Below are positions 1 through 13,591 of a stretch of 13,591 bases of DNA, in pieces. The notes under the pieces were generated by a model. That model had not been told where the DNA came from. It did not search any database and saw only the letters and a list, made by a program, of their open reading frames with translations. Positions within the stretch are counted from its first letter, which is position 1, and each line of letters starts with the position of its first letter. The stretch comes from Candidatus Thorarchaeota archaeon (GTDB lineage: Archaea > Asgardarchaeota > Thorarchaeia > Thorarchaeales > Thorarchaeaceae). The stretch spans positions 1-13,591 of the forward strand of contig PRDH01000011.1 in assembly GCA_003345545.1 (NCBI GenBank), read 5' to 3'. The position numbers were made by a program, and so were the translations under genes.

Positions 1-608
1 TCTCCCGTCTTTCGTGATGAAACAGTACGAGGGCCAGACATGCTTTCAATGTGCCCCTCAACTACGACTTGATTCTGACCGTTGTGAAGATCACCTATCA
101 TTGACATCGCCCTTGGAAATTTGTCTGAGAGTTTCTTTTCGTAGTAGTTTCCACTCCATTGAGGGAGGTCGTGTGTCTTTCCAATCTGGACAAATCCAAG
201 TTTCCTGTAGAATGGGTTGGTCCTGACATTCCATTCGGGAGTCCCCAATGCCCATAGCTCGGCTGAGGGATATCCCAGCCAGACTATCTCGAATGCCTTC
301 TCGCCTACGCCCTTTCTCATATGGTCAGGATTCACCCAGATTCTCTCGCACACTTGATATCCTGGGCCCCTATCTCCTGCGATGAATCCTCCAATAATGT
401 TGCCGCTTCTGAGAATCTTGTAGTATTGCAGGTATGGATTGCCGATTATGCCTTTATTCCATTCAACCGAGTCATAGCCCGGAGGGCCGCCTGGGCCAGG
501 AGCTCCTACCTCTGAGTCAGAGTCGAATGCCTTCTTGCATATTCCCGTCAGAATCTCTGCATCTTCCGTTTCTGCTCTGCGGACTGCAATCTCATTTGTC
601 GCGTTCAT
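1..608 (-). CDS. GNAT-family N-acetyltransferase fused to a C-terminal OB-fold (SSB/RPA-like) domain; 3'-partial, runs off the window edge
   Basis: Manual translation from ATG 608, open to base 3 with no stop: MNATNEIAVRRAETEDAEILTGICKKAFDSD...GPGGPPGYDSVEWN...ERIWVNPDHMRKGVGEKA...LGTPEWNVRTNPFYRKLGFVQIG... It has the GNAT acetyl-CoA motif A (VxPxxxRKGVG) and the NxxxxxFYxKLGF motif. It continues as MSMIGDLHNGQNQVVVEGHIESMSGPRTVSSRKTG, resembling the first strands of archaeal SSB/RPA OB folds. Not in the supplied ORF track. Confidence 0.85.
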   Translation of the reverse strand, partial: MNATNEIAVRRAETEDAEILTGICKKAFDSDSEVGAPGPGGPPGYDSVEWNKGIIGNPYLQYYKILRSGNIIGGFIAGDRGPGYQVCERIWVNPDHMRKGVGEKAFEIVWLGYPSAELWALGTPEWNVRTNPFYRKLGFVQIGKTHDLPQWSGNYYEKKLSDKFPRAMSMIGDLHNGQNQVVVEGHIESMSGPRTVSSRKTG

Positions 609-776
609 TGAAAAACCCGTTTGACATCGAGGGCGCTCGTTCTTTACCTAATCGCTCAGGCTTAACGAGCTATGGCTACACTTTCCATTGACTGTGCTCC
701 TATCGAAGTGATAGAGAGGATGGCTAATGGCCCACGTCGTCTGAGAGTTCAAGGAATCGCCACTCTCTTTGAGAGC

Positions 777-1556
777 TCATCTTCGCCTTCTAATGACCAA
801 GCGAGAGAATGTTATATTCCGACCCTCGTCATCTTGAGCAATCTTCTCAGGATATCCTATGATTCGTTCCCACTCAAGATACGTCAGGTATCCCTCTTTA
901 TCTGGAAAGTTATCTGCCACCTCAACCTCCACTTGTTCTGTCTTGAGCCAGTGTCTTTTCCACCATTCCGCTGAGTGCCACGTATAGAGCATGCAAGACT
1001 CCCAATACTGTCTTAGATGCGCAGGAATGTCGTCTAATAGTGTTCCCTGAAACTCGGTGTAAAATCCAGGAACAACACTGCCTATCTGCCCACCGAGCTT
1101 CACTCGTGGAATGAGATGGTGTTTCAGATAGATGTCTTCAGTAGCGAAGAAGAAAAGGGAATTTACACATATGATAGCGTCAAAGAAATCTTTGGGGAAA
1201 GGAAGCTCTCGGGCATCGCTTCTGAGTGGAAAAATCTGCGCCTCAAGGCCCATCTGCTTTATTCGTTCCCAATTCTCCGTTTGGCTGACAGCATTGTCGA
1301 CTGCCCAGACTTGTACATCGAATTCCTTTGCCAGGAATATTGCTCCTCCGGCCTTTCCGCATCCAAGATCCAGGACACGCATCCCTGGTTTCAAATCCAT
1401 CTTCTCACAGAGCCGCTCTAGTAGCCAAAGAGTAGGGCATCCCATATCGAGACTTACCATCCAATCGGGCTCATATTTGCAGGTGCGAGGAAAGTCTTCA
1501 TTTCTCAGCAGCTTGCGAGCCAGTTCCATATTGACATTTGTCGCCACATGAGTCAC
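777..1556 (-). CDS. Class I SAM-dependent methyltransferase (Cfa/UbiE-like fold), substrate unknown
   Basis: 259 aa ORF, GTG start. Motif I RVLDLGCGKAG, acidic end of strand 2 (VWAVD), and DARELPFPKDFFDAI motif II region. Confidence 0.88.
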   Translation of the reverse strand: MTHVATNVNMELARKLLRNEDFPRTCKYEPDWMVSLDMGCPTLWLLERLCEKMDLKPGMRVLDLGCGKAGGAIFLAKEFDVQVWAVDNAVSQTENWERIKQMGLEAQIFPLRSDARELPFPKDFFDAIICVNSLFFFATEDIYLKHHLIPRVKLGGQIGSVVPGFYTEFQGTLLDDIPAHLRQYWESCMLYTWHSAEWWKRHWLKTEQVEVEVADNFPDKEGYLTYLEWERIIGYPEKIAQDDEGRNITFSRLVIRRRR

Positions 1557-1573
1557 CTACTTCCATAGTCTGG

Positions 1574-1595
1574 AGATACATAGACACCTGTATCT
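1574..1595. promoter_or_regulatory. 7-bp inverted repeat AGATACA-N8-TGTATCT upstream of the methyltransferase start; possible operator or hairpin
   Basis: Perfect arms at 1574-1580 and 1589-1595 in the 86-nt deaminase/methyltransferase spacer, adjoining the AT-rich minus-strand TATTTTAGA. Function is inferred only. Confidence 0.3.
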
Positions 1596-1642
1596 AAAAT
1601 AGAGCTAGAAGTAAGCAAGATTGTGGCGAAGCACCCCGCATG

Positions 1643-3037
1643 TTAGAGTACAGGCCACTTGGGACTGATGTCGACATCAGCCCGCTCCAGAAGCTCAGTG
1701 ATGTGGGACTTGGCCTTCTCCATGACCTCGTCTATGTTCAGCGTCAGGAGTTGCTTGTTGCACATCAGAACCTTCCCGTTCACTATGGTAGTGTCAACAC
1801 TCTGACCACTCCCGCTATAGACAAGATTGGACACGGGATTCACTGCAGGTGTGAGACCAAGTTCGTGTAGGTCGATGATGATGACATCAGCGAGTTTCCC
1901 AGGCTCAAGGGAGCCCACCTTGTCAGCAATTCCCATGGCAACAGCGCCTCTAAGGGTTGCCATCTCGATCACATCCTCAGCACTCACCACGAGGGGGTCC
2001 TTGGCAACTGGCTTATGTATGAGAGCGGCAAGACGCATCTCGCGGACCATGTCATAGGTATTGTTACTGGGTCCGCCATCACACCCGAGAGACACAGGCA
2101 CACCCTGTTCTAACATCTGCGGAATCTTTGCAAATCCCGAGGCAAGTTTTGTATTGCTCGCTGGACAGTGGCTGATGTTAGTATGTGTTTCAGAGAGGGC
2201 CTTCAGCTCAGTATCCTCGAAATGGATGCCATGGGCAAAGACCATCTCAGGGCCAAGCAGGTTGTGCTTCCGTGCAAAGCCAGTGAGGTTCGTGCCGAAG
2301 TTGTCCCGGACATACCTGACATCATCCACGACCTCTCCAAGGTGCATGGTCATGTGGGTCTTCTTCTCCCGGGTCCTCTGGGCGACCTCCATGAATAGGT
2401 CGGGAGTCACACCGCCCAGGGACCTGAGGCCATACCAGACCTGAATGCGGCCATCTGCCTTCCCATGCCACTTTCGGTACATCTGATTGGTCTCGCGCAG
2501 GCAGGCATCAGCATTCTCTACCATCCCGGGATACATAATGTCCGAACTATCGGCATAGCCTGCGGAGTCCATGATGATCTTTGAGAGCCCACCACGCATC
2601 CCGGCTTGCACCACAGCCTTGGCGATTCCATCGAAGCCGTATCGCGTGTGAATCATACAGTCAACAAAGGAGGTAGTGCCGGTTCGAATCATCTCTGCCA
2701 TACAGAGATTTGCGGAAACCCTACCATCATCCTTTGTGAAGTTGCCCTGTAGCACCCAGACATATTTCTTGAGCCAATCAACAAGAGATACATCATCCGC
2801 ACAACCACGTATCAGAGCCTGAGACAGGTGAACATGGGTATCTATGAGACCAGGCATCACGATCTTGTTCTTGGCATCGATGACAGTCTCAGCTCCATGT
2901 GCCTGCAGGGCCTCAGTCTTTCCTACCTCGACTATCTTTGTGTCCTCGATGTAGATGGCACCATCACGGACTATCTGGCGTCTGGGATTGAGGGTCAGAA
3001 CATATCCATTCTTGATTAGTATTGAGTCTGAGGGCAT
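1643..3037 (-). CDS. Metal-dependent amidohydrolase/deaminase (COG0402; guanine/8-oxoguanine/MTA-SAH deaminase and Atz/Trz-like family)
   Basis: Motifs PGLIDTHVHLSQ (HxH), MHLGE (H plus catalytic E), FAHG, HCPASNTKL, LGCDG (metal Asp) and GSLEPGKLADVI. Start moved from 3085 to ATG 3037 (MPSDSILIKNGYVLT), with a GGAGGT SD at 3052-3047. Confidence 0.92.
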   Translation of the reverse strand: MPSDSILIKNGYVLTLNPRRQIVRDGAIYIEDTKIVEVGKTEALQAHGAETVIDAKNKIVMPGLIDTHVHLSQALIRGCADDVSLVDWLKKYVWVLQGNFTKDDGRVSANLCMAEMIRTGTTSFVDCMIHTRYGFDGIAKAVVQAGMRGGLSKIIMDSAGYADSSDIMYPGMVENADACLRETNQMYRKWHGKADGRIQVWYGLRSLGGVTPDLFMEVAQRTREKKTHMTMHLGEVVDDVRYVRDNFGTNLTGFARKHNLLGPEMVFAHGIHFEDTELKALSETHTNISHCPASNTKLASGFAKIPQMLEQGVPVSLGCDGGPSNNTYDMVREMRLAALIHKPVAKDPLVVSAEDVIEMATLRGAVAMGIADKVGSLEPGKLADVIIIDLHELGLTPAVNPVSNLVYSGSGQSVDTTIVNGKVLMCNKQLLTLNIDEVMEKAKSHITELLERADVDISPKWPVL

Positions 3038-3059
3038 TGGCGCTATACCTCCGATGCAG

Positions 3060-3074
3060 ACAGACATCTGGCAG
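3060..3074 (-). promoter_or_regulatory. Candidate operator CTGCCAGATGTCTGT (near-palindromic core CAGAYRTCTG) upstream of the deaminase
   Basis: 13/15 identical to CTACCAGATATCTGT at 7513-7527 upstream of the PreA-like gene; both copies are intergenic. Confidence 0.3.
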
Positions 3075-3108
3075 TAGAATAACATAATGATTGTGGTGCC
3101 GCTGACAT

Positions 3109-4911
3109 TTACTTTACTATCTCGAACTTCAGATCTATACTGAGACCCTCTTCAGGATGCCCCTTTACACGGTCGCGTAGTGTGGGATAGGCACCACCAT
3201 ATTTCTCTGCAAGTCGTCGGACAAGATGGAGCCCGACACCTCCGTATCTCCGAGTTGGGTCAAAGAAATCGATCTTCTTTGCATCTGAAATTCCAGGACC
3301 GTTGTCGGTAATCGTGAGAGTGTATGTCTTGCCAGATGACTTCCCTGAGACACTGACGGTCTTGTACAATTCTTCTTTCGGATTATGAATGACTGCGTTC
3401 TCTAGGAGATTCCATATGAGCTGACTCAGTGCTTGGTCCGCATAGACCATGACATCGCCTTTGAATCCACTGAGATCGGTTCGGACTCCCCGTTGTTTGA
3501 AGAGAAGTTCAGCCTCAGCCTCTACTACTGGACGGAGACGCACAGGTATGAGAGGCTCCGACTTTGATTCCTCAGCACGACGCACTTTTTGAATCAGTTC
3601 AAGGCAACGAAGGGCTCCGTCCATGATGTATCTCTTTGAGCGGACTATCTGGTCAGGCTTGGAGTCGGTATCCAAGAAATCGCTCCCCGCAACAATCAGC
3701 TGCAGCTGATTGCCAATATCATGTAGAAGCAGGTCTAGCAGGAAGTACACCTCAGCCTCAACCTTCTTCATATCAGAAATATCAGTGAATACTGCCATAC
3801 TTCCAGCATACACGCCATCTCGATTCAGTACTGGTGATGCTGAGACCATGACGGGAACAAGGCCGCCCTTCTTGTGAATGAGCTGAGCCTCATAGTGCTC
3901 CAATTTTCCCTCTTTTCGTGCCTTGACTTTTTCGTGCACGTTGTTCTCAGTCCAGCCGTGTAGAATCTCCGTTATTGGATGCCCGACCAGTTCCGCGGGT
4001 GAATCATACCCAAGCATACGGCACAATGCGTCATTGACCAGAACCATCTTGCCATCGCCATCGTCAACACTCAATCCTGAGTCCATTGTTTCCACGAGTG
4101 AGCGATAGCGATATTCTGATTCTTCAAGCGCATGAGCACTCTTCAGTTCCTCAGTAATATCGAGGAGCTGTCCGACTGTTCTAACCTTACCATCTCTGCC
4201 TCTTATGGATCCAACACTCATCCGGATATTACGTGATGCTCCATCCTTGCGTACCACCTTGAACTCGTAGATGGTGGGAACTTCCTCACCCCGTTGACGT
4301 TTTATGTACCGCTCCGAAACTAGTTCAAGACTATCAGGGTGAAGAAACTCACGAAAGTCATGGCCTACGATCTCGCTCCTGAGCCTTCCAAGGATATCAC
4401 AGAGCTTGTCATTCACATATCTGAATCTGTAATCATCGCCGACTATGAGTGTCCCGCTGAGATTATTGTAGTCCACAATATACTCCAGTATCTCTTTTTG
4501 TGAGAGTATCTTCTCTTCAACGGCCTCCCTACGAGCTAGATCAACAACATAAGCAATATAGCCTGTGACCTTCTCGTCTGTCTTGATTGCATTGGCGTAC
4601 ACCTGCGTTGGAACAGCCACACCACTAGGACCGACTACACGAAGTGAGATTGATGTGGGTGTTGCACCCTCGCGGAGCTGATTCAGTCCTTCATGCACCA
4701 GAGCGTGTTGCTCTGGGATGACTAGGGAATCTAGATGAACTCCCGCAGCTATCCTGGAATCATCCAGGTTCAGTAGTTTTGCCGCAGAAGGATTTGCATA
4801 GGTCAGCATGAAATTTAGATCGAACTCCACTACCGGAATCAGCATCATATCTGCCACTTCGTGGAATCCTCTTCTATGCGGGAGCGGCTCTCGCCGGCGT
4901 TTTTGTTTCAT
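3109..4911 (-). CDS. Soluble PAS-domain sensor histidine kinase (3 PAS/PAC + HisKA-like + HATPase_c)
   Basis: Three PAS repeats (LTYANPSAAKLL; FRYVNDKLCDILG...FLHPDS; VLVNDALCRMLGY) ending in DL/DIT/DIS. H-box LLLHDIGNQLQ, N-box LIWNLLENAVIH, G1 DNGPGI, G2 GGVGLHLV. No evident TM helix. Start set at ATG 4911 (MKQKRR); the 5052 start would overlap the divergent promoter region. Confidence 0.92.
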   Translation of the reverse strand: MKQKRRREPLPHRRGFHEVADMMLIPVVEFDLNFMLTYANPSAAKLLNLDDSRIAAGVHLDSLVIPEQHALVHEGLNQLREGATPTSISLRVVGPSGVAVPTQVYANAIKTDEKVTGYIAYVVDLARREAVEEKILSQKEILEYIVDYNNLSGTLIVGDDYRFRYVNDKLCDILGRLRSEIVGHDFREFLHPDSLELVSERYIKRQRGEEVPTIYEFKVVRKDGASRNIRMSVGSIRGRDGKVRTVGQLLDITEELKSAHALEESEYRYRSLVETMDSGLSVDDGDGKMVLVNDALCRMLGYDSPAELVGHPITEILHGWTENNVHEKVKARKEGKLEHYEAQLIHKKGGLVPVMVSASPVLNRDGVYAGSMAVFTDISDMKKVEAEVYFLLDLLLHDIGNQLQLIVAGSDFLDTDSKPDQIVRSKRYIMDGALRCLELIQKVRRAEESKSEPLIPVRLRPVVEAEAELLFKQRGVRTDLSGFKGDVMVYADQALSQLIWNLLENAVIHNPKEELYKTVSVSGKSSGKTYTLTITDNGPGISDAKKIDFFDPTRRYGGVGLHLVRRLAEKYGGAYPTLRDRVKGHPEEGLSIDLKFEIVK

Positions 4912-4947
4912 GGCCGTGCATCTACAGGCTTTGATGGTCACCACTAT

Positions 4948-4967
4948 ATGTCCAAAATCGATTGGAC
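4948..4967. promoter_or_regulatory. Candidate regulator-binding site: GTCCAA-N6-TTGGAC inverted repeat overlapping the 16-mer AATCGATTTTGGACAT (minus strand)
   Basis: Lies in the divergent kinase/Fe-S-AOR spacer. The 16-mer (4963 to 4948) matches 10968-10983 in the second divergent spacer at 15/16. Confidence 0.45.
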
Positions 4968-5090
4968 GCAGAGTGGAATACAAGACTGAACCACTAATAT
5001 CTTTGTATGATGTATACGACCAAGAGGAACAACTTAAGAGCCAACTATACATTTGCGTGGGGGCTTACAGAATACAGGAGAAACCACCCT

Positions 5091-5582
5091 GTGAAAGACA
5101 TACTCGCCATCGACTTGAGACTGTGCACAGGATGTCGCAGCTGTGAGCTTGCCTGCTCTATTGCCCATACGCGATCTTTCAACCCGAAGAGGTCGAGGAT
5201 TCAGATTCTGAAAGAGGAGGTCAGGAATCTCGTTGTACCCATGGTATGCCTGCAATGCGAACGGCCCCTCTGCCAAGAGGCGTGTCCGAATGGCGCGATA
5301 GTGGAGAACAAACACGGAGTTCTCTACGTTGATAGTGAAATCTGCATTGGTTGCATGAACTGCGTGACTGCATGTGTATACGGTGGGATTGCCATCGACC
5401 CCGTGACTAGAAGAGCAATAAAGTGCGACCTGTGTAAGGGAGATCCAGCTTGCGCCAAGGCATGCCAATACGGTGCAATCAGTCTCAGCACCTCAGAGGC
5501 AGGAGGGCTCAATCAACGCAGGAGAGGGGTCGTGCCAGCATTTCGAACGCTGGGAATCCAGGTAGAGGAGGGAAGAGAGTGA
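5091..5582 (+). CDS. 4x[4Fe-4S] electron-transfer protein (DmsB/HydN/AorA-like), probable small subunit of the adjacent AOR
   Basis: 16 Cys in four motifs: CTGCRSCELAC, CLQCERPLCQEAC, CIGCMNCVTAC, CDLCKGDPACAKAC. GTG start at 5091 with AGGAG at 5076-5080. The stop overlaps the AOR start (GTGA). Confidence 0.93.
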   Translation: MKDILAIDLRLCTGCRSCELACSIAHTRSFNPKRSRIQILKEEVRNLVVPMVCLQCERPLCQEACPNGAIVENKHGVLYVDSEICIGCMNCVTACVYGGIAIDPVTRRAIKCDLCKGDPACAKACQYGAISLSTSEAGGLNQRRRGVVPAFRTLGIQVEEGRE

Positions 5583-7507
5583 CATTTCCATACAAGGGCT
5601 ATGCAGGGAAATACCTGGATGTCGACCTCACAAAGGGCGTTGTCCATGTGAAAGACATGGAGAAGGAGTGGGCAAGGCTTTTCCTCGGAGGCAGCGGGGT
5701 TTCTTCAAAGATACTCTGGGAGAGAACGAATGCCAGGACAGACCCGTTGTCACCCCAGAATATACTGATCGCAGGGACCGGGCCCCTCACTGGTGCATTG
5801 TTCTCACCATCGGGGAGAATGATGTTTGCAGCAAGAGGCCCCCTGACAGGTGTATGGGCGGAGTCCCATGTTGGTGGATTCATGGGTCCTGAGATGAAGT
5901 ACGCGGGATTCGACTTTGTCATCTTCAATGGGCGTTCCAAGAAGCCCGTCTATCTCTTCATGAGGGACGGACACGCAGAGCTCAGGGACGCCTCGCACGT
6001 CTGGGGGCAAGAGACCAATATCACAACAGTGATGATCCGTGAAGAACACAAGGACCCGTCGATTGAGACTGCGGTCATTGGGCCTGCGGGAGAGCACGGA
6101 GTACTCTACGGTTCCATCACTGTGGACTTCTATCGTGCAGCAGGGCGAGCCGGTCTTGGGGCGGTGATGGGGTCTAAGAATCTGAAGGGCATAGCAGCCT
6201 CTGGAGCCATCGGTCTGGAGGCGTATGACATGGACAAATTCGTCGAGGCCAGCGCACGCGAGGTGGCAAAGCTCAACGACCCTCTTTGGAAGGAATCACT
6301 TGCATCACTAAGAAAGTATGGGACCACAGGCCTTGTAGCCGTCATCAATCAGATTGGAAGACTCCCCACAAAGAACCACTGGACTGGCTACTATGAGCTG
6401 GCCGAGGATATCGGTCCTGAGATCATTGCAGAGAAGTACAGGATTGGACAAGAAGCATGCTATGGATGTGCAATCGGCTGCAAATACATCATCCGCATAA
6501 AGGACGGTGACTACGCTACAGAACCTGTCGGTGGCCAAGAATATGAAACAATCATGGCCTTTGGTTCTAACTGCCTGAATAACGATATTGAGTCCATCCT
6601 CCATCTGGGCAAGAGGTGTGACTTGCTTGGTCTGGATACCATATCATGCGGTAAGACAATCGGATTTGCAATGGAGCTCTTTGAGAAGGGCATCTTGACG
6701 GAGAAGGACACAGGAGGTATTGACCTCACCTGGGGCAACAAGGAGGCACAGGTCAAGCTTGTCGAGATGATTGCTAGGAGGGAGGGTATAGGTGACATTC
6801 TCGCAAACGGGGTCAGAAAGGCAGCCGAGCAGATAGGTGGTGATGCATGGAAGTATGCAGTCCATGTGAAGGGGCTCGAGGCCTCGGGACAGGACCCACG
6901 GGCACATCAGAGCGTTGGTCTGACATATGCCACAAATGTGCGCGGAGCAGACCACCTTAGAAGCCTGTCAAGCCTAGAAGAGCTGGGATATCCGAATATC
7001 GTCATCCAACGGTTTGGTGAGGAGAAAGCGGATGCAATCCTAAATATCATGTCACCAAAGTACAAGGGCCAGGTTGTGTGGGACATGGAGGACCTGTATG
7101 CCTTGGTCGATTCTGCAGTGATATGTAAGTACTCAACGATGTGGCCTCCGGTATTCTATTATGACACGTTTGTCAATGTCATCCCGTCCCTGACTGGCAT
7201 GAAGGAGTGGTCAGACCCGAAGTACGTGCGGCAGACTGCGGAGAGGATAAGCCACCTCAGACGAGCATTCAATCACAGGCTTGGAATCACGCGGAAAGAC
7301 GAGACCCTGCCTCCGAGGTTGCTGCATGAGCCGATGCCAACCGGACCTGCAAAGGGTGGACTTCCAGACCTTGACGAGATGCTTGATGAGTACTACGAGT
7401 ATCGTGGCTGCGACAGAGAGACCGGGTACCCGAAGGAGTCGAAGCTCAAAGATCTGCAGCTAGACTTCGTGGTTGATACGCTCAAGCCCAAGGGAATGAC
7501 GCGGTAG
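5579..7507 (+). CDS. aor: Tungsten-containing aldehyde:ferredoxin oxidoreductase (AOR/WOR) family catalytic subunit
   Basis: GYAGKYLDVDLT N-terminus, GPLTG...GGFMGPEMKYAGFD, IGPAGE, AAGRAGLGAVMGSKNLK, [4Fe-4S] ligands CYGCAIGC plus ICKY, EYET, DLLGLDTISCG, VKGLE, GADH. Real start is GTG 5579, overlapping the upstream TGA; the ORF-track extension from 5450 is not AOR-like. Confidence 0.95.
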   Translation: MTFPYKGYAGKYLDVDLTKGVVHVKDMEKEWARLFLGGSGVSSKILWERTNARTDPLSPQNILIAGTGPLTGALFSPSGRMMFAARGPLTGVWAESHVGGFMGPEMKYAGFDFVIFNGRSKKPVYLFMRDGHAELRDASHVWGQETNITTVMIREEHKDPSIETAVIGPAGEHGVLYGSITVDFYRAAGRAGLGAVMGSKNLKGIAASGAIGLEAYDMDKFVEASAREVAKLNDPLWKESLASLRKYGTTGLVAVINQIGRLPTKNHWTGYYELAEDIGPEIIAEKYRIGQEACYGCAIGCKYIIRIKDGDYATEPVGGQEYETIMAFGSNCLNNDIESILHLGKRCDLLGLDTISCGKTIGFAMELFEKGILTEKDTGGIDLTWGNKEAQVKLVEMIARREGIGDILANGVRKAAEQIGGDAWKYAVHVKGLEASGQDPRAHQSVGLTYATNVRGADHLRSLSSLEELGYPNIVIQRFGEEKADAILNIMSPKYKGQVVWDMEDLYALVDSAVICKYSTMWPPVFYYDTFVNVIPSLTGMKEWSDPKYVRQTAERISHLRRAFNHRLGITRKDETLPPRLLHEPMPTGPAKGGLPDLDEMLDEYYEYRGCDRETGYPKESKLKDLQLDFVVDTLKPKGMTR

Positions 7508-7512
7508 AACAG

Positions 7513-7545
7513 CTACCAGATATCTGTTCAGGAGAATGATTTATG
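7513..7545 (+). promoter_or_regulatory. Palindrome CAGATATCTG (7517-7526) and TATA-like TTTATG (7540-7545) before the PreA-like gene; possible internal promoter/operator
   Basis: Perfect 10-bp palindrome in a 62-nt spacer. TTTATG sits about 25-30 nt upstream of ATG 7570, the spacing expected for an archaeal leaderless transcript. Confidence 0.3.
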
Positions 7546-7569
7546 TTCATGGAGCTGTAGGTCACGTCT

Positions 7570-8661
7570 ATGGCAGACATCAGTGTTGAGTTGCTTGGAC
7601 TCAGATTCAGGAACCCGATTCTCACCGCAGCTGGACCGGCCTCGAGAGATGGTATGACACTCCTCAATGCAGCTGCAGGTGGAGCTGGTGGGCTTGTAGC
7701 CAAGACTGTGAGCGTCAGGCCGGCAGATGTCCCAAGGCCGAATATGGCAGCTCTCAAGGAGGGAAGAGTTGGATCAAGACTGGGTATGCTCAATGCGGAA
7801 CTCTGGAGTGAACTTCCCCTCGAAACTTGGCTTGAAAGAGAGTATCCGATAGCACTGAGCTCGGGGCTGCCACTGATTGCCAGTGTTGGGTACACTCCTA
7901 AAGATGTCAGCGCGATTGCGCCAAAACTAGAGAAGGCTGGCGCAAAGGCGATTGAGTTCAGTACGCACTATGTCGGAGGCCATGTTGAGATCGCTAAGGC
8001 GCTGAGAGATGCCGTGGACATCCCGATTATCGCGAAGCTGAGCCCAAAGGTGGATGTGGCAGAGGTGGCGCGAGCACTGGAGCCCTATGTTGACGCCATA
8101 GCTGCAATCAATACCTTTGGCCCATGTCTCAGGATAGACGTGGAGTCAGGAAGACCTATGCTTGGGAGCAGTGACGGTTACGGATGGATGAGTGGCTCTG
8201 CCCTGAAGCCCATAGCACTGAGATGTGTTGCGGATATTGCACAGGCCATCAGACTCCCGATTATTGGAGTGGGCGGTGTGATGTCAGGCGAAGATGTCAT
8301 CGAGTTCCTCATGGCAGGAGCATCAGCAGTTCAGGTGTGTACAGCCGCAATCCTTGAAGGGCATACGGTATACGGGAAGATAGCAGGACAGGTTGAGGAG
8401 TGGCTGGACAGACATGACTACTCCTCCATACAGGATGTCCAGGGAATGGCGCTTCAGCACTTGAAACAGGGGGTCTCTCTGGAGCCACCACCCACAGTAG
8501 ATCTGGACAAGTGTACACGCTGCGGACTATGTGAGAAGTCCTGCGTCTATGGAGCAATCACAGTGAAGAAATCAGAGAACATCTTTGCAATAGACGCTGA
8601 CAAGTGTGAGGCCTGTGGAATGTGCATCTCTGTATGCCCATACTATGCTCTTAGCTATTGA
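7570..8661 (+). CDS. Dihydropyrimidine dehydrogenase PreA/PydA-like (class 1 DHOD fold) FMN protein with C-terminal 2x[4Fe-4S]; non-canonical active-site loop
   Basis: FRNPILTAAGP, GGLVAKT, GMLNAELWSE, AKLSP, AINT, GWMSGSALKPIAL, IGVGGV, GASAVQVCTA. C-terminal CTRCGLCEKSC and CEACGMCISVC. The usual ELNxSCP loop reads IEFSTHYVGG. Confidence 0.88.
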   Translation: MADISVELLGLRFRNPILTAAGPASRDGMTLLNAAAGGAGGLVAKTVSVRPADVPRPNMAALKEGRVGSRLGMLNAELWSELPLETWLEREYPIALSSGLPLIASVGYTPKDVSAIAPKLEKAGAKAIEFSTHYVGGHVEIAKALRDAVDIPIIAKLSPKVDVAEVARALEPYVDAIAAINTFGPCLRIDVESGRPMLGSSDGYGWMSGSALKPIALRCVADIAQAIRLPIIGVGGVMSGEDVIEFLMAGASAVQVCTAAILEGHTVYGKIAGQVEEWLDRHDYSSIQDVQGMALQHLKQGVSLEPPPTVDLDKCTRCGLCEKSCVYGAITVKKSENIFAIDADKCEACGMCISVCPYYALSY

Positions 8662-8733
8662 GCGTTTCCCGATTGCCTCTGAGAGCACAAGCAGTTGTCT
8701 AAGCTGACTTGATGCATTATATCACTACAGTCC

Positions 8734-9918
8734 TCAGACAAAGAGGATATCATCGATGCCAGTGGTGAGTCTTCTAGCTCTCCCTTTGGTGACCGCATAG
8801 TCGTTTTCGATACGTACACCACCAACGGATTTCAGATAGACGCCTGGTTCAATGGCCATGACATGTCCCTCAAGGAATGGTTCCTCACGGCTGTACATGC
8901 TGGGCAATTCATGCACCTCAAGGCCTATACCATGCCCGAGCCCGTGCGTCATGCCGTCCTTCGCATCTGGATTGAGTCGACGGGAGTCGAACCCATGTTG
9001 CTTCAGGGTGTTGACACAGGCGAGGTTCACCTTATCGATGAGAGTACCATCAGTCAGAGCATCCACGGATGCTTCGGCAGCAGCAGCAACAGCATCGAAC
9101 ATCTTCTGCACGCGCCTTGGAACAGGTCCTCTCACAACAGTGCGAGTCACGTCGGCAACGTATCGTTCCAGTTTCAACCTTGGAAACACATCCATGATGA
9201 CAGGAGCTCCGCCCTTGAACCTGTCACCTTGCGCACCGAGATAGTGCCAGTCAAAGGCCTTGCTTCCGACTGCGACAATGGCATCCTCAGAGGACTCTGC
9301 CCCCCTGTCAAGCAGAAAGTGTTCCAGGGCCAGCTTGATCATTCCCACAGTCAGCGGGTTCCCCTTGTGCATCAGAACCTTGTTGGCTCCAATCGTGCTG
9401 TTCTTCACCATCTCTACGACCTGCATAATGGCACCAGTCGTCGCATCACCAGCCTTCTTGATGGTCTTGATCTCTTTCACAGACTTTCTGGCTCGCGCCT
9501 CAAGAACAAGGTCACGAACCACCTTGACGGTGTACCCCATCTTCTGAAGCATCACAAGCAGACTTGCAGGAAACTCATCAGGAACACCAAGAATCTTTCC
9601 TGAGAACTGAGCTCTCAATAGGGAGCCGTAGATCTGGTCCATGTTGTCATTGACCTTCTTGTTCTCATGGAGTATCTTCAGAACGACATCGGTGAAGTCA
9701 TGTGTGTGAGTGATGAAGCTCTCCTTTACGACGCGTTCAAGTGCGAGGAATGAGGCGGCTACAAGAGGCGCATCTCCGCGATTCTTGAGATAGATTATCT
9801 CGTCAGTGGAGCGAAATCCTGTCAGCCAATACACACTAGGATTGTCAAAGGCACTACCACATGTCAGTAGTGCGTCGATTCCATACCTCTCCATGAGGGG
9901 ATCTAGGTCTTCATACAT
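8734..9918 (-). CDS. M24 family metallopeptidase (Xaa-Pro dipeptidase/aminopeptidase P-like) with creatinase-like N-terminal domain
   Basis: Metal ligands D (MDVFP), D (ADVTRT), H (HGLGHGIGLEVHE), E (IEPGVY), E (GVRIEND); N-terminal SVYWLTGF. Start probably ATG 9918 (MYEDL) with GAGG upstream; GTG 9948 is the alternative. Confidence 0.92.
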   Translation of the reverse strand: MYEDLDPLMERYGIDALLTCGSAFDNPSVYWLTGFRSTDEIIYLKNRGDAPLVAASFLALERVVKESFITHTHDFTDVVLKILHENKKVNDNMDQIYGSLLRAQFSGKILGVPDEFPASLLVMLQKMGYTVKVVRDLVLEARARKSVKEIKTIKKAGDATTGAIMQVVEMVKNSTIGANKVLMHKGNPLTVGMIKLALEHFLLDRGAESSEDAIVAVGSKAFDWHYLGAQGDRFKGGAPVIMDVFPRLKLERYVADVTRTVVRGPVPRRVQKMFDAVAAAAEASVDALTDGTLIDKVNLACVNTLKQHGFDSRRLNPDAKDGMTHGLGHGIGLEVHELPSMYSREEPFLEGHVMAIEPGVYLKSVGGVRIENDYAVTKGRARRLTTGIDDILFV

Positions 9919-9968
9919 TTGACTTGCCTCGGCCCGATGATGGGGCACATCATGAAAAAGGCTTCTGT

Positions 9969-10877
9969 TTACGCCTGAATATACGCCCGCATGCGGGACT
10001 CAACCATGGACCGCGTGGGCATGTCATAGGGTCCCACAGACTCTACATTGAAGGAGGCACAGGTCGCCGCGAACAGCCCTGCGCGCCGGACATCACCAGA
10101 CCGCATGTACTCTAGCAGGAAACCAATCGTGTATGTGTCGCCGCAACCAGTCGTGTCTGCTTGGACCCTCGCAAGCACTAACGGAATCTTCACCTGTGAA
10201 TTTCGAGTATAGATGACGGAACCTCGTTGGCCATGAGTCACTAGAACTACTCTTGGACCAAGACTGAGTATCTGACTGGCGGCTGATAGCTCGGATTCTG
10301 CTCTAACTGTGGCGAACAACTCACTTACATGAAATTTCACGACGTCCACTAGTTCCAGAATCTCATCCCGCGCTGTCCAATTCTTTGGAGTGACCACCCC
10401 ACTACGGTCGATCGATCGGGTGTAGCCCTGAACATCGAGAGACGTGAGGGCGGCGCTTGAGCGGGCCTGTTTAATACACTCAGTGCTAATCTCTTCAGCT
10501 GTCAGCGGAGAGAAATGGATGACATTCGCCTCAAGATGGTCGTCTGTGAAGTCCTTTGGCCTGATTGGGGGAGCTAGCGCTTCCACATACTGAACGCGGG
10601 CACCAGAAGTATCATACTTGTTCACGAACCGTGTTGATTTCGGTCCCTCAGTGAGTAGTCCGGAGAGATCAAGACCTGAGGAGCGCAGGGTGTCACGATA
10701 GCTCTGCTCGAAGTCAGTTCCTACCTTCGTGACAATCCCAGCCCCGAATGCGCCAATAGAGGGGGCAAGCATTGCATAAGCAGTACCTCCTCCAAGCGCC
10801 TCTTTGGTAGTATTAGGCGTTATGATGAGGTCTCTGCTAAGATGACCTGCAACAACAATTTCCAATGGACTTCTCAC
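9969..10877 (-). CDS. PfkB/ribokinase family carbohydrate or nucleoside kinase
   Basis: N-terminal VAGHLSRD...LGGGTAY, KVGTDF, VTHGQRGS, anion-hole motif DTTGCGDTY, C-terminal AATCASFNVESVG. GTG start. Confidence 0.9.
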   Translation of the reverse strand: MRSPLEIVVAGHLSRDLIITPNTTKEALGGGTAYAMLAPSIGAFGAGIVTKVGTDFEQSYRDTLRSSGLDLSGLLTEGPKSTRFVNKYDTSGARVQYVEALAPPIRPKDFTDDHLEANVIHFSPLTAEEISTECIKQARSSAALTSLDVQGYTRSIDRSGVVTPKNWTARDEILELVDVVKFHVSELFATVRAESELSAASQILSLGPRVVLVTHGQRGSVIYTRNSQVKIPLVLARVQADTTGCGDTYTIGFLLEYMRSGDVRRAGLFAATCASFNVESVGPYDMPTRSMVESRMRAYIQA

Positions 10878-10918
10878 GACCCGAGCACTGAGAGGAGCCG
10901 TCCGATGCGGATGGTACC

Positions 10919-10983
10919 TTTAACTTATACGCTGAGATGTGGACTCTGTGCATAAGGCAATTGTTTTAATCGATTTTGGGCAT
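10919..10983. promoter_or_regulatory. Divergent promoter region: TATA-like TATAAGTTAAA (minus, 10929-10919) for pfkB, and TTTTAA (plus, 10964-10969) overlapping the 16-mer AATCGATTTTGGGCAT (10968-10983) for the moaD operon
   Basis: AT-rich boxes roughly 40 nt upstream of each divergent start. The 16-mer recurs at 4948-4963 with one mismatch. Confidence 0.4.
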
Positions 10984-11006
10984 CTCATCGCATTGGGTGT
11001 ACAATC

Positions 11007-11288
11007 TTGGCTCAGGTCACTGTGAAATTCTTTGCTACTGTCAGAGAAGTGACAGGGGTAAAGAGCAGAGAGATGGAGGCGAACACTATTAGAGACCTCC
11101 TTGATGGCTTGAAAGTGGCCTATGGAGAGAGGTTTACAGACACAGTGTTCGATAGAGCAACAGGCAATCTGAAGCAGTTCTATTCTTGCATGGTGAATGG
11201 TAGACGGATTGAGTTGCTTGATGGCTATGAAACGAAACTCTCAGACAATGATGCGGTGGCGCTGTTCCCACCTGTTGGGGGCGGATGA
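11007..11288 (+). CDS. moaD: MoaD/ThiS/SAMP ubiquitin-like sulfur carrier protein
   Basis: 93 aa, TTG start. VTVKFFATVRE N-terminus, VNGRRI, and DAVALFPPVGGG C-terminal di-glycine. Such genes commonly accompany AOR-family genes. Confidence 0.9.
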   Translation: MAQVTVKFFATVREVTGVKSREMEANTIRDLLDGLKVAYGERFTDTVFDRATGNLKQFYSCMVNGRRIELLDGYETKLSDNDAVALFPPVGGG

Positions 11289-11289
11289 G

Positions 11290-12699
11290 ATGAGTAGTTC
11301 ACTTACATCAAAACACAGGAAACAGACTGGCAGAGGAAGTGTGGACCTCGTCGTACGAAATGCGCAGCTATTGATGGAGTCTGGACTTGTGCGGGGAGGA
11401 CTAGGAGTCAAAGGAGGAACCATCTGCATCATCGCCACTGATGAGCATCTCCCCGAGGGAGATGTCACAATCGACGCACGAGAAAGAATCCTGATGCCAG
11501 GACTGATAGATGGGCATGCACACATCCATGACCCGGCTATGCTGTCCCACGAGAGCTTTCAATCAGGCTCCAGAGCTGCAGCAGGAGGGGGAGTCACGAC
11601 AGTCATCGATATGCCTCTGACCAGTCAAGTTGACTCAATCAAGTCGGTTGAAGAGAAGATACAGCAGGGCAAGGCACACTCAGTGGTCGATTTCAGCTTC
11701 TATGCAGGGATGATCAACTCTGGCAACGTATCTATCATACCGACCTTCATAGAGAAAGGAATTGCAGCCTTCAAGGCCTTTACCTGCGCACCCTATCAGG
11801 CAGGAACAGGAGTAATAGCAAAGGCCTTGAGTGAGGTCTCAGAGTACGGAGGACATCTCACAGTACACTCTGAGGACCAGGGTGTTCTTGATGAGTTCAA
11901 GAAGGACATGGATGGTGAATGGGATGCTCCAATCAGTCATTCACTGGCACGACCCAATCTTGCTGAGCAGCTTGCTGTAAGGCAGAACATCTCCCTGGCG
12001 GAACAGACAGGAGGCCACCTGCATATAGCGCACGTCACTACGCGAGAGGGTCTTAGTGAGATTGAGAGTGCAAAACTGCGTGGCATCATGGTGACTACAG
12101 AGGTATGTCCGCATCACCTTGTGTTCTATAGGGATGATATGAACCGTCTGGGGCCAAGAAGCAAGATGAACCCGCCTCTCAGGACCAAGGAGGACAGAGC
12201 TGCACTCTGGTCAGCACTGCTCCGAGGGATGATTGACATCACAGTGAGCGACCATGCGCCCTGTCCTATTGAGAAGAAAGAGGCGGGAAAAGATGATATC
12301 AGAGAGGCATGGGCGGGAGTCGATGGAACTCAGATGATTCTCAGGGTCCTGCTCTCAGAGGGAATCAACAAGGGAAGGCTCTCGTACACAAGGCTGCTCA
12401 GGGTGGCAGCACGGAACCCTGCACGTATCTTTGGCCTTTACCCAAAGAAAGGAACACTCCGGATAGGCTCTGATGCAGACTTCGTCATCATCGACCCCGA
12501 CAGAGAGGAGAAGATCACTGCAGAGATGATGTTCTCGAAGTGTGAGTGGACTCTCTATGAGGGAATGACAATGAAGGGCTCCCCGGAGATGACCTTCGTT
12601 CGGGGGACGCAGGTATTTGGCGACGGCAAAATACTCACCAAACCAGGACGAAGTGAATTCCAAGCTATGGGAAGCGGGGGACGACCAGTAGGAGAGTGA
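11290..12699 (+). CDS. Cyclic amidohydrolase (allantoinase/hydantoinase/dihydroorotase superfamily), most similar in motifs to allantoinase or L-hydantoinase
   Basis: PGLIDGHAH (HxH), AAAGGGVTTVIDMP, AFKAF (carbamylated Lys), VHSED, HIAHVT, EVCPHHL, KMNPPLR, SDHAP, AWAGV, NPARIFGLYPKKG. Start is ATG 11290, 1 nt after the moaD stop, or GTG 11341 (VDLVVRNA, GAGG upstream). Confidence 0.92.
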   Translation: MSSSLTSKHRKQTGRGSVDLVVRNAQLLMESGLVRGGLGVKGGTICIIATDEHLPEGDVTIDARERILMPGLIDGHAHIHDPAMLSHESFQSGSRAAAGGGVTTVIDMPLTSQVDSIKSVEEKIQQGKAHSVVDFSFYAGMINSGNVSIIPTFIEKGIAAFKAFTCAPYQAGTGVIAKALSEVSEYGGHLTVHSEDQGVLDEFKKDMDGEWDAPISHSLARPNLAEQLAVRQNISLAEQTGGHLHIAHVTTREGLSEIESAKLRGIMVTTEVCPHHLVFYRDDMNRLGPRSKMNPPLRTKEDRAALWSALLRGMIDITVSDHAPCPIEKKEAGKDDIREAWAGVDGTQMILRVLLSEGINKGRLSYTRLLRVAARNPARIFGLYPKKGTLRIGSDADFVIIDPDREEKITAEMMFSKCEWTLYEGMTMKGSPEMTFVRGTQVFGDGKILTKPGRSEFQAMGSGGRPVGE

Positions 12700-12702
12700 A
12701 TT

Positions 12703-13194
12703 GTGAGCGAACTCAAATTTGTCTTTGGCGACCCGCAAGTCTGTTCAGGCTGTATGATCTGCGTGAACGTATGCAGCATGTATTACTTCAAGGTGATAAG
12801 CCCAACACGGTCACGTGTGCGAGTTGTGAGAGCTGAGCCAGGTCTGGATTTCCCACTCTTCTGCCGCAACTGCGAGGATGCACCCTGCATCGATGCCTGC
12901 CCATCGGCTGCCTTGAGTCGCACCTCCAAGGGAATTGTCATTGTGAACAATAACAAGTGTGATGGTACAGGTGAGTGCGTTGAAGCTTGTCCGTACAATG
13001 CCATCCACATCAATCCGGACACAGGGAAAGCCATCAAGTGCATCCAGTGTGGCCAGTGCGTGGACCGCTGCCCTGCAGACGCCCTGTTCATGACCATGAA
13101 AGAGGACCTTGCCAAGAGGGATAAGGAGGGACGAATGATGGCACTGTACGAGAAGCATAAGACAGAGCTGTACGGCGAGGAGGAGGATTATTGA
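12703..13194 (+). CDS. Multi-cluster Fe-S electron-transfer protein (DmsB/HydN/AorA-like), probable small subunit of the second AOR
   Basis: CSGCMICVNVC, CRNCEDAPCIDAC, CDGTGECVEAC (one Cys replaced by Thr), CIQCGQCVDRC. GTG start; the stop overlaps the next ATG (TGATG). Confidence 0.93.
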   Translation: MSELKFVFGDPQVCSGCMICVNVCSMYYFKVISPTRSRVRVVRAEPGLDFPLFCRNCEDAPCIDACPSAALSRTSKGIVIVNNNKCDGTGECVEACPYNAIHINPDTGKAIKCIQCGQCVDRCPADALFMTMKEDLAKRDKEGRMMALYEKHKTELYGEEEDY

Positions 13195-13591
13195 TGTTCG
13201 GTATGGGTGGGGAGATCATCCGGGTTGACCTGACAACGGGAAGCATCAAGAAAGAGCCCATTGACAAGAAGCTAGTCCGCAAATACCTCTTGGGAGCCGG
13301 ATATCTCTCGAGGGTCCTCTATGATATGATTCCTGGAGGAACAGATCCGCTAGGAAAAGACAACGTTCTTGGATTTGCAACAGGCCTGCTCACTGGATCC
13401 ATGTTTCCTCAGTCCTCGAGACACGTCATTGCCGCACTATCACCTCTGACAAATATCTGGGGAGAGAGTCACGCAGCAGGATTCTGGGGGCCAGAACTCA
13501 AGCTTGCAGGCTATGATGCCATCATATTCACTGGAGCGTCGCCAACGCCTGTTTACCTGCATATCGAAGACTCAATCATCGAGCTTCTGGA
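13194..13591 (+). CDS. aor: Second AOR/WOR-family tungsten oxidoreductase, N-terminal part (3'-partial)
   Basis: Manual translation from ATG 13194 (GGAGGAGG upstream): MFGMGGEIIRVDLTTGSIKKEPIDKKLVRKYLLGAGYLSRVLYDMIPGGTDPLGKDNVLGFATGLLTGSMFPQSSRHVIAALSPLTNIWGESHAAGFWGPELKLAGYDAIIFTGASPTPVYLHIEDSIIELL, a classic AFOR_N sequence open to the window end. Not in the ORF track. Confidence 0.93.
   Translation, partial: MFGMGGEIIRVDLTTGSIKKEPIDKKLVRKYLLGAGYLSRVLYDMIPGGTDPLGKDNVLGFATGLLTGSMFPQSSRHVIAALSPLTNIWGESHAAGFWGPELKLAGYDAIIFTGASPTPVYLHIEDSIIELL

Follow-up and report, generated by a model that had tools for sequence, protein, structure and literature searches.

A conserved archaeal gene island joining tungsten-type AOR-family enzymes to a PreA-like reductase and amidohydrolases: a candidate locus for purine-type ring breakdown

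The closest described counterpart of the locus analysed here is the reductive uric-acid/2,8-dioxopurine pathway, published in 2025, whose cast comprises XdhD, YgfK or UacX, SsnA, HyuA, YgeW or UacY, YgeY and YgeX. In the bacterial pathway XdhD/DOPDH makes 2,8-dioxopurine, YgfK or, in Clostridioides difficile, the FAD-less UacX carries out the dearomatisation, ring opening falls to SsnA and HyuA and the release of the ureido groups to YgeW/UacY and YgeY, and YgeX yields pyruvate (PMC12507026; bioRxiv 10.1101/2025.04.24.650524). A ferredoxin-dependent dihydropyrimidine dehydrogenase (DPD), PydAc of Clostridium chromiireducens, has been characterised as well (PMC7332683). Here we analyse a stretch of 13,591 nucleotides from a Candidatus Thorarchaeota archaeon (assembly GCA_003345545.1, contig PRDH01000011.1, positions 1 to 13,591; hereafter the window), which encodes two members of the tungsten-type aldehyde:ferredoxin oxidoreductase (AOR) family together with a PreA-like reductase, two amidohydrolases and several accessory proteins. 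To our knowledge, the molybdenum xanthine-oxidase family is the only one known to hydroxylate or dehydroxylate purines.

The window is the entire contig C11 of a 2.69-Mb assembly of 82 contigs that is 93% complete (the host genome, G000; its nearest relative is G001), and near-identical DNA was found in several wetland metagenomes. Six-frame open reading frames (ORFs) and Pfam/NCBIfam scans of the window proteins bore out the gene content given in the initial annotation: two modules of a polyferredoxin and an AOR (FeS1 with AOR1 and FeS2 with AOR2, the last cut by the contig end), the PreA-like reductase, MoaD, a PfkB kinase, an M24 metallohydrolase, a PAS kinase, a cyclic amidohydrolase (AH2) and a COG0402 amidohydrolase (AH1). 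The same scans found neither a xanthine-dehydrogenase-family nor a PreT gene in the window, again as annotated. The role in nucleobase catabolism proposed there is also supported, in that the cast equals that of the reductive uric-acid/2,8-dioxopurine pathway minus its xanthine-dehydrogenase-family enzyme and recurs across phyla. We regard the locus as probably a catabolic island for purine-type rings. The fuller proposal, that Thorarchaeota have here their version of an island, widespread in archaea, for anaerobic reductive purine-type breakdown in which two AORs would make the oxo adjustments, has in our judgement slightly less than an even chance of being right.

An island conserved across archaeal phyla

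A synteny scan anchored on the PreA-like gene, with one genome per species, returned 80 loci. About 65 of these belong to Thorarchaeota, and all keep the cluster as far as their contigs extend, so that the genes grouped into one system in the initial annotation do co-occur. The gene order AH1, PAS kinase, FeS1, AOR1, PreA-like, M24, PfkB, MoaD, AH2, FeS2, AOR2 is identical over all 11 genes in every Thorarchaeota locus with enough flank, and the PreA-like proteins there are 63–96% identical. Within the genus, PreA-like orthologues of 73–96% identity were present in 24 of 24 sampled genomes.

Beyond Thorarchaeota, PreA-like orthologues with 49–56% identity were found in metagenome-assembled genomes of Hermod-, Baldr-, Heimdall-, Bathy-, Kor-/Thermoproteota- and Nitrososphaeria-type. 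The PreA-like gene in these loci is accompanied by one to three Fe-S and AOR pairs and in most of them by one or two COG0402 amidohydrolases; AH1 orthologues (50–52% identity) occur in the Hermod-type islands, AH2-type enzymes in the Nitrososphaeria, Bathy- and Kor-type loci, and MoaD in some. The Nitrososphaeria locus has two OTCase-family carbamoyltransferases flanking the AH2-type gene, an amidohydrolase scoring best as SsnA (396 bits) and a threonine-synthase-like pyridoxal-phosphate (PLP) enzyme, and the Hermod-type locus has two OTCases, an SsnA-like protein (380 bits) and the AH1 orthologue. An adenine deaminase lies directly upstream of the PreA-like gene in the Bathyarchaeia locus, which also holds ABC permease genes, and the Kor-type locus encodes a Bmp/PnrA-type binding protein of the nucleoside class. 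The extra neighbours found elsewhere, namely SsnA-like proteins, paired carbamoyltransferases and adenine and 8-oxoguanine deaminases, sharpen the assignment to purines. The paired OTCases of the other phyla score best as acetylornithine- or ornithine-type and not as YgeW. The threonine-synthase-like PLP enzyme recurs in the islands of other phyla (354–368 bits on PRK08197, above the cut-off; L092:14968-16227 and L110:5989-7239), where it occupies the place of the bacterial diaminopropionate lyase YgeX.

Several counterparts of these neighbours are encoded elsewhere in the host genome. Contig C76 carries an adenine deaminase gene and an SsnA-like gene whose product scores 366 bits (cut-off 444) and is 49–52% identical to the island copies of other phyla; of the 28 genomes of the genus, 23 have its orthologue, among them all seven of high quality. 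OTCase homologues are encoded on C47 and C27, one of those on C47 being 65% identical to the Nitrososphaeria island copy. No YgeW/UacY, YgeY or YgeX was found in the window. The lack of a xanthine-dehydrogenase-family gene, noted first for the window, extends to the genome and the genus: the molybdenum domain PF02738 had no match in the host genome (93% complete), all 28 genomes of the genus were equally negative, and control genomes were positive. A RuBisCO-like gene is present in the host genome and would fit an archaeal nucleotide-sugar salvage that releases free bases. Among the neighbours of the SsnA-like gene on C76, seven of eight ORFs have no Pfam match and the eighth encodes an Amidohydro_2 protein; three co-directional ORFs immediately upstream (838, 291 and 496 aa; L104:3347-8366) are among those without a match. 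On C47, the 65%-identical OTCase, just beyond which the contig ends, adjoins a tandem pair of penicillin-amidase-family genes (859 and 870 aa; L106:13025-18305).

Set beside the bacterial uric-acid clusters (ygeW...ygfK-ssnA-ygfM-xdhD of E. coli, and those of Clostridioides difficile, with UacX, and Clostridium sporogenes), the archaeal island shares a candidate FMN/Fe-S ring reductase that, like UacX, has no FAD domain, a COG0402 amidohydrolase (SsnA-like in related islands and elsewhere in the host genome), a candidate ring opener of the hydantoinase type and an anaerobic, ferredoxin-linked setting; related islands also share the carbamoyltransferases. It differs from them in that the archaeal operons hold two or three AOR-family enzymes with polyferredoxins and no xanthine-dehydrogenase-family enzyme. 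Neither a YgeX-type lyase nor an M20-type YgeY was seen, whereas M24, PfkB, PAS kinase and in some cases CLC genes have been added. The host is an Asgard archaeon, and the island reductase lacks the catalytic Cys loop of DPD.

AOR pairs and the PreA-like reductase

A maximum-likelihood tree of 34 AOR sequences with SH-aLRT support, which included eight other AOR paralogues of the host genome, placed the island AORs of all phyla, all but one, in a single clade (98) separate from those eight. This clade comprises three groups: the AOR2 clade (support 100), common to Thor-, Hermod-, Baldr- and Nitrososphaeria-type loci and a further Asgard family (G035); an AOR1 group adjoining the PreA-like gene; and a third clade (support 99). 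The host genome contains about 13 AOR-family paralogues (contigs C3, C9, C13, C15, C17, C19, C33, C39, C47 and C65), several of which, on C13, C19 and C39, come with a polyferredoxin gene of their own.

The tie between the AORs and ring-opening or deaminating neighbours, read originally from one locus, was also seen when the AOR and not the reductase served as anchor. Full-length AOR2 was compared with 1.8 billion cluster representatives (50% identity clusters) and the six best matches, 41–47% identical, were read. Five of these six nearest representatives, from unrelated metagenomes, adjoin amidohydrolases; two of the six also adjoin PreA-like genes and two adjoin Bmp-type ABC transporters. 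The first has an AOR fragment, a PreA-like gene and an Fe-S gene upstream and an amidohydrolase downstream. Upstream of the second lie a Bmp-type ABC transporter, an OTCase, a ThrC-like gene, a phosphoribosyltransferase, an AH1-type amidohydrolase and an Fe-S gene, and downstream a PreA-like gene, an Fe-S gene, ThiS and a second AOR. The third follows a Bmp-type ABC transporter and an Fe-S gene and precedes a cytosine-deaminase-like protein, and downstream of the fourth is a bona fide 8-oxoguanine deaminase (594 bits, cut-off 532). The fifth has an amidohydrolase and an Fe-S gene upstream, with a Pyr_redox_2 flavoprotein, an amidohydrolase, a second AOR and ThiS downstream; the sixth has only Fe-S and ThiS neighbours. 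Across unrelated organisms, then, this AOR clade is found together with nucleobase enzymes.

A variant metagenomic island (L114:7542-14826) has a Pyr_redox_2 flavoprotein of the FAD/NAD type in the usual place of the PreA-like gene after Fe-S and AOR; these genes lie between two amidohydrolases, with a second AOR and ThiS also alongside. By analogy, this variant appears to parallel XdhD with its FAD subunit YgfM.

AOR1 scores 236 bits on AFOR_N and 418 bits on AFOR_C, and starts at a GTG overlapping the stop codon of FeS1 (GTGA). Its nearest PDB entries are 9mqx_D, 1aor and 8c0z (392–424 bits), and it retains the equivalents of P. furiosus AOR Cys288, Cys291, Cys295, Cys494, Tyr312, Glu313 and His448. 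FeS1 carries four [4Fe-4S] motifs, and 16 Cys are invariant in an alignment of 16 orthologues. Characterised AORs were compared with the island AORs through PDB bit scores; for AOR1 and AOR2 alike the nearest structures are classical AORs (9mqx, 1aor, 8c0z and 9g7j, 361–431 bits), with FOR, WOR5 and BamB at 220–293 bits. Both enzymes keep the Glu313/His448 equivalents, as EYE and GADH in AOR1 and as EFE and GADH in AOR2. The first cluster Cys is replaced by Asp in the AOR2 clade (ADW-SCLQRC versus ACY-GCAIGC in AOR1) of Thor-, Hermod- and Nitrososphaeria-type loci; the Baldr-type enzyme keeps the Cys. This Asp, also present in AOR2 of the nearest relative (L013:14881-16740), may point to a cluster that is Asp-ligated or of the 3Fe type, with a shifted potential.

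The AOR2 gene, cut off at the end of the window, resumes on another contig of the assembly. Residues 8–133 are 95% identical to the full-length orthologue of the nearest relative (619 aa), and C80:2-949 encodes residues 305–619, the last 315, with 97% identity to the same protein, so about 171 codons fall in the assembly gap between C11 and C80. A leucyl-tRNA synthetase gene follows AOR2 on C80 as it does in the nearest relative, and the island therefore ends there. In the nearest relative (L013:13746-14417), as in several further Thorarchaeota, AOR2 is followed by a gene for a DUF998 membrane protein; the host genome appears to lack this gene, since only about 390 bp separate AOR2 from the leucyl-tRNA synthetase gene on C80.

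Among characterised enzymes, AorABC(DE) of Aromatoleum aromaticum (8c0z), the P. furiosus AOR (1aor) and the 9mqx AOR are the closest solved relatives of AOR1 and AOR2 (365–431 bits) and have the same catalytic Glu/His pair. The likeness to AorABC extends to operon make-up: a four-cluster polyferredoxin is encoded directly upstream of the AOR and a flavoprotein downstream of it, and the cluster includes a MoaD-like gene. The flavoproteins differ, the one in the island being an FMN-dependent, DPD-like reductase with two [4Fe-4S] clusters and that of AorABC an FAD/NAD protein. As further differences, the island AORs form a clade of their own tied to amidohydrolases and nucleobase deaminases, and in most lineages island AOR2 carries Asp at the position of the first cluster Cys.

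The domain make-up of the PreA-like protein fits UacX (PF01180 plus Fer4), a comparison made by domain description, all curated models being below cut-off. It scores about 100 bits on both DPD (103) and class 1B dihydroorotate dehydrogenase (DHODH), and so represents a distinct subfamily. In alignment with pig DPD (1gt8), the equivalents of Lys574, Asn609, Glu611, Lys709, Asn736 and Thr737 as well as the eight Cys are kept. The 17 orthologues aligned, which come from several phyla, all carry the loop motif IEFS-HY, and five residues after the Asn-Thr motif stands a Cys that is almost invariant. Pfam recognised only the DHO_dh barrel and the C-terminal Fer4 in this protein, and no N-terminal ferredoxin domain. 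There is no PreT in the island; the strongest Fer4_20 (GltD/PreT-type) gene of the host genome, one of two passing the cut-off, lies on C70. Lacking both a PreT partner and an N-terminal ferredoxin domain, the reductase must receive its electrons from another Fe-S protein. The obvious candidate is FeS1, whose gene stands two places upstream in this operon. Prediction of a complex between the PreA-like protein and FeS1 scored 0.00; it was run without controls and no inference was drawn from it.

PydAc (PMC7332683) and E. coli PreA resemble the island reductase in having an FMN barrel with a C-terminal pair of [4Fe-4S] clusters and no FAD/NAD(P)H domain, and like PydAc the PreA-like protein is expected to depend on a low-potential Fe-S donor. 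In contrast to PydAc, it has neither an N-terminal ferredoxin domain nor the catalytic Cys, and its operons contain AORs, not PydB/PydC.

Amidohydrolases, accessory genes and transcription units

The features of the window are collected in Table 1. The genes form four transcription units: PAS kinase to AH1 on the minus strand, FeS1-AOR1-PreA-like on the plus strand, PfkB to M24 on the minus strand, and MoaD-AH2-FeS2-AOR2 on the plus strand. Packing within the operons is tight, with GTGA and ATGA overlaps and gaps of 1–4 nt.

Table 1. Position, strand and supporting matches of island genes and of the repeated promoter motif in the window.
Feature	Position	Strand	Remarks
AH1, COG0402-type amidohydrolase (nucleobase/nucleoside deaminase type)	1643..3085	-	Probable start 3037; Amidohydro_1 E 1.6e-69
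PAS-PAS histidine kinase, candidate island sensor	3109..5052	-	PAS_9, PAS_4, HATPase_c
12-nt motif CCAAAATCGATT, copy 1	4952..4963	+	PAS-kinase/FeS1 divergent promoter region
FeS1, polyferredoxin, AOR1 partner	5091..5582	+	Fer4 families; GTG start at 5091 after GGAG
AOR1, tungsten-type aldehyde:ferredoxin oxidoreductase family	5579..7507	+	AFOR_N E 5e-70, AFOR_C E 5e-125
PreA-like FMN barrel with C-terminal 2x[4Fe-4S]; candidate ring reductase (UacX/PydA-like)	7570..8661	+	DHO_dh E 1.5e-33, Fer4
M24 'pita-bread' metallohydrolase	8734..9948	-	Peptidase_M24 E 4e-38
PfkB-family kinase	9969..10877	-	PfkB E 3e-24
12-nt motif CCAAAATCGATT, copy 2	10968..10979	-	PfkB/MoaD divergent promoter region
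MoaD/SAMP-type ThiS-fold protein (pterin-cofactor sulfur carrier or small modifier)	11007..11288	+	ThiS E 1.6e-15
AH2, cyclic amidohydrolase (hydantoinase/allantoinase/dihydropyrimidinase type)	11290..12699	+	Amidohydro_1; ATG directly after MoaD stop
FeS2, polyferredoxin, AOR2 partner	12703..13194	+	Fer4 families; 34% identical to FeS1; 4-nt overlap with AOR2 start
AOR2 N-terminus, first 133 residues	13191..13591	+	AFOR_N E 1.4e-41, 143 bits; cut by contig end

AH1 has the HxH, HxxE, His and Asp motifs of its superfamily in translation, and the earlier assignment to COG0402 stood. The guanine-type part of that assignment did not: the best NCBIfam match is 5'-deoxyadenosine deaminase (413 bits, cut-off 522), with SsnA at 230 and guanine deaminase (TIGR02967) at 195 bits against a cut-off of 375, and the nearest structure is the MTA/SAH deaminase 4f0r (228 bits), the guanine deaminases of the PDB scoring 120–126 bits. 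An identity as guanine deaminase was rejected on these low scores with the curated models and the PDB. All AH1 scores are under the curated cut-offs, and at 230 versus 413 bits the protein is not SsnA-type; by sequence it appears closest to the 5'-deoxyadenosine, MTA/SAH and 8-oxoguanine deaminases. AH2 shows HxH, a carboxylated-Lys context, two further His and SDHAP. It stays below cut-off on the allantoinase (342 bits), dihydroorotase (329 bits) and D-hydantoinase (307 bits, cut-off 393) models and passes the general pyrC_multi model (303 bits versus 279); in the PDB it comes closest to 1gkr, an L-hydantoinase (263 bits), and to 3hm7, an allantoinase. Creatinine or hydantoin use and ergothioneine breakdown were rejected as functions of the island, as they would fit AH2 and M24 only and not the conserved core.

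M24 and PfkB are always paired in the Thorarchaeota loci and were seen in no island of other phyla. The M24 start probably lies near 9918, because public gene calls give 394 aa. The protein shows no more than a remote relationship to Pyrococcus prolidases (95 bits), and its close homologues, some with a Creatinase_N domain, are almost confined to Thorarchaeota and gave no functional lead; it may cleave a ureido or amidino bond. PfkB has weak NCBIfam matches far under the cut-offs, among them ribose-1-phosphate kinase, ribokinase and nucleoside kinase models, and its nearest structures are TM0415 and MJ0406 (63–70 bits). It may connect the pathway with the handling of nucleosides or ribose phosphates. 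MoaD scores 76 bits on the archaeal model TIGR01687, above the cut-off of 49.5, and a ThiS gene also adjoins related AORs in other phyla. In some Thorarchaeota species the interval from AOR1 to the PreA-like gene contains one or two CLC-CBS channel genes in the same orientation (L018:7997-9829 and 9971-11788; L016:7622-9496); the window has none. Upstream of AH1, window positions 3-1556 encode a GNAT acetyltransferase and a SAM methyltransferase, which are kept only in the nearest relative and thus lie outside the conserved island.

The PAS kinase holds its position in most Thorarchaeota loci that reach that far. Its true start is probably 4911, since the first 47 ORF codons are unmatched in distant orthologues and a Met stands at codon 48. 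Of the shared intergenic motifs reported in the initial annotation, one was recovered, a 12-mer common to two divergent promoter regions, and further shared motifs were not; besides it, a repeat search of the window returned only short, chance-like matches. The 12-mer has two copies in the window where 0.04 are expected by chance, and it occurs at both sites in the nearest relative with one mismatch and is not kept in distant Thorarchaeota. A scan of the window for sigma-70 promoters and terminators gave chance-level results, the method being unsuited to an archaeon. Contigs from one wetland RNA library, mostly at least 99% identical, cover the kinase, FeS1/AOR1, PreA-like, AH2 and other genes; because such libraries can contain DNA, they hint only weakly at transcription. 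None of these contigs lies on M24 or PfkB, and contigs of this kind cannot show absence.

Candidate pathway and competing explanations

The analysis establishes the gene content, the intact motifs, the tight operon packing, the AOR/PreA-like/amidohydrolase core common to several phyla, the company it keeps with purine-specific enzymes and the lack of the xanthine-dehydrogenase family in the genus; every substrate and every electron path of the following pathway we infer. AH1 and the adenine deaminase encoded on C76 would deaminate purines freed from nucleosides or nucleotides. The two AORs, as putative tungstopterin enzymes, would then carry out ring C–H hydroxylation, reductive loss of ring oxo groups or both, as XdhD/DOPDH-type molybdenum enzymes do in bacteria, and would exchange electrons through their own four-cluster polyferredoxins. 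FeS1 would hand low-potential electrons to the PreA-like protein, which would dearomatise the ring in the manner of UacX/YgfK; the unlinked SsnA-like protein and the hydantoinase-like AH2 would open the two rings, and M24 together with the unlinked carbamoyltransferases would take off the ureido groups. MoaD would serve the pterin cofactor, and the PAS kinase and the shared 12-nt promoter motif would co-regulate the operons. Oxidation at some ring carbons, with oxo removal and ring reduction elsewhere, would give an internally balanced redox loop.

The step that sets this scheme apart from the bacterial one is an action of the AORs on the heterocycle itself, which we put forward tentatively. 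Hydroxylation of a ring C–H beside nitrogen is the aza-analogue of aldehyde oxidation, and the aldehyde oxidases of the xanthine-oxidase family perform both reactions at one site. This analogy is counted for direct ring action, as are the AOR pairs inside the operons, an oxo step otherwise left without enzyme in the genus, a pathway without aldehyde intermediate and the flavoprotein variant; together they make it conceivable, with the balance still somewhat on the negative side. With a similar reserve we propose that a clade of AOR-family tungstoenzymes, each with its polyferredoxin, may serve as purine-ring hydroxylases or dehydroxylases in place of the xanthine-dehydrogenase family when Asgard and other archaea break down purines anaerobically, two or three of the AORs and the Cys-less, DPD-like reductase possibly forming an internally balanced, ferredoxin-wired loop.

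Several observations weigh against the pathway set out above. The AORs retain the classical Glu313/His448 pair, their closest solved relatives are broad-range aldehyde oxidoreductases, and their sequences appear to demand no new substrate. An AOR of the island clade on C19 of the host genome (third clade; L108:1977-4384), with an Fe-S protein, adjoins a class IV aminotransferase; a glutamate dehydrogenase lies about 2.4 kb upstream and the other neighbours are unknowns, a context of ordinary amino-acid fermentation and not of purines. The PreA-like protein scores below the cut-offs of the PreA (198 bits, cut-off 335) and PyrD models, and the catalytic Cys671 of DPD is absent from it, the corresponding loop being shorter and without Cys. 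In Thorarchaeota the SsnA-like, carbamoyltransferase and adenine deaminase genes lie outside the island, and the bacterial pathway has no counterpart of M24 or PfkB. A diaminopropionate ammonia-lyase was not seen; the PLP enzyme that two related clusters encode is threonine-synthase-like. The host genome (93% complete) yielded neither an NCS1 nor an NCS2 nucleobase permease.

In one rival explanation the purine pathway would be the same and the AORs would be ordinary aldehyde oxidoreductases feeding low-potential electrons via the polyferredoxins to the PreA-like reductase. They would oxidise fermentation aldehydes or reduce acids, much as in AorABC, with the PreA-like protein in place of AorC. 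The classical Glu/His pair and Fe-S ligands and the nearest structures (1aor, 8c0z and 9mqx) are as this explanation would have them; the order Fe-S, AOR, flavoprotein and the MoaD gene mirror AorABC, a variant with a Pyr_redox_2 flavoprotein exists, a paralogue of the same clade sits in the amino-acid context on C19, and a PreA-like protein without PreT partner needs a donor. We nevertheless consider a mere electron-supply role unlikely. Many enzymes give reduced ferredoxin, and two or three pairs of AOR and Fe-S protein across phyla seem excessive for the purpose; it would also leave the oxo-adjusting step without enzyme in a genus that lacks the xanthine-dehydrogenase family. Moreover, the purine pathway has no known aldehyde intermediate (PMC12507026).

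In another rival explanation the island would serve a reductive pyrimidine or orotate pathway. The PreA-like protein would in that case reduce uracil, thymine or orotate, AH2 would act as dihydropyrimidinase or dihydroorotase, M24 or the carbamoyltransferases would release beta-alanine or aspartate, and the AORs would oxidise malonic or methylmalonic semialdehyde, closing the redox loop. The retained equivalents of DPD Asn609 and Asn736/Thr737 speak for such a route, as do the scores of AH2 on dihydropyrimidinase and dihydroorotase models with its pass of the pyrC_multi cut-off, the precedent of a ferredoxin-dependent DPD (PMC7332683) and the cytosine-deaminase-like gene adjoining one related AOR. 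Biosynthetic PyrD and PyrC are encoded elsewhere, which would make the island genes spare copies. Yet no aminotransferase for a semialdehyde was present in any island examined, the SsnA-like protein, adenine deaminase and 8-oxoguanine deaminase point to purines, and the Cys that DPD and class 1 DHODH use in catalysis is absent, so that we think this route improbable. De novo pyrimidine synthesis was rejected as a function of the island, since PyrD- and PyrC-like paralogues are encoded elsewhere in the host genome.

Salvage or disposal of 5'-deoxyadenosine or methylthioadenosine, by-products of radical-SAM and polyamine chemistry, in which AH1 would deaminate, PfkB would phosphorylate the deoxy-sugar and the AORs would oxidise released (methylthio-)acetaldehyde, draws on the best family matches of AH1 (5'-deoxyadenosine and MTA/SAH deaminases), on the presence of PfkB and on the aldehydes that a DHAP-shunt type route would yield for the AORs, but it is very improbable, given that all AH1 scores are below curated cut-offs, that Pfam/NCBIfam scans found no phosphorylase, isomerase or aldolase in the island, that PfkB and M24 were seen only in Thorarchaeota loci, and that the PreA-like protein, AH2, the SsnA-like protein and the carbamoyltransferases of other phyla would be left unexplained.

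Our literature search returned no paper linking the AOR family to nucleobase breakdown. The term 'aldehyde ferredoxin oxidoreductase' never appeared together with dihydropyrimidine dehydrogenase and archaea, nor with SsnA; searches on tungsten, purine and archaea returned general reviews, and the Thorarchaeota papers that mention AOR do not have the island in their titles or abstracts. The published assays for YgfK/UacX, SsnA and HyuA are directly applicable to the island enzymes.

If breakdown of purine-type rings by the island and its AORs is borne out, the 2025 gut-bacterial 2,8-dioxopurine pathway would extend to archaea and to wetlands. If a tungsten AOR acted on purines, the family would gain a new reaction class, and purine catabolism would have been solved a second time, independently. 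The many AOR genes of sediment archaea are usually read as belonging to amino-acid or aldehyde metabolism; nucleobases from necromass would then be a defined substrate for Thorarchaeota and other sediment archaea.

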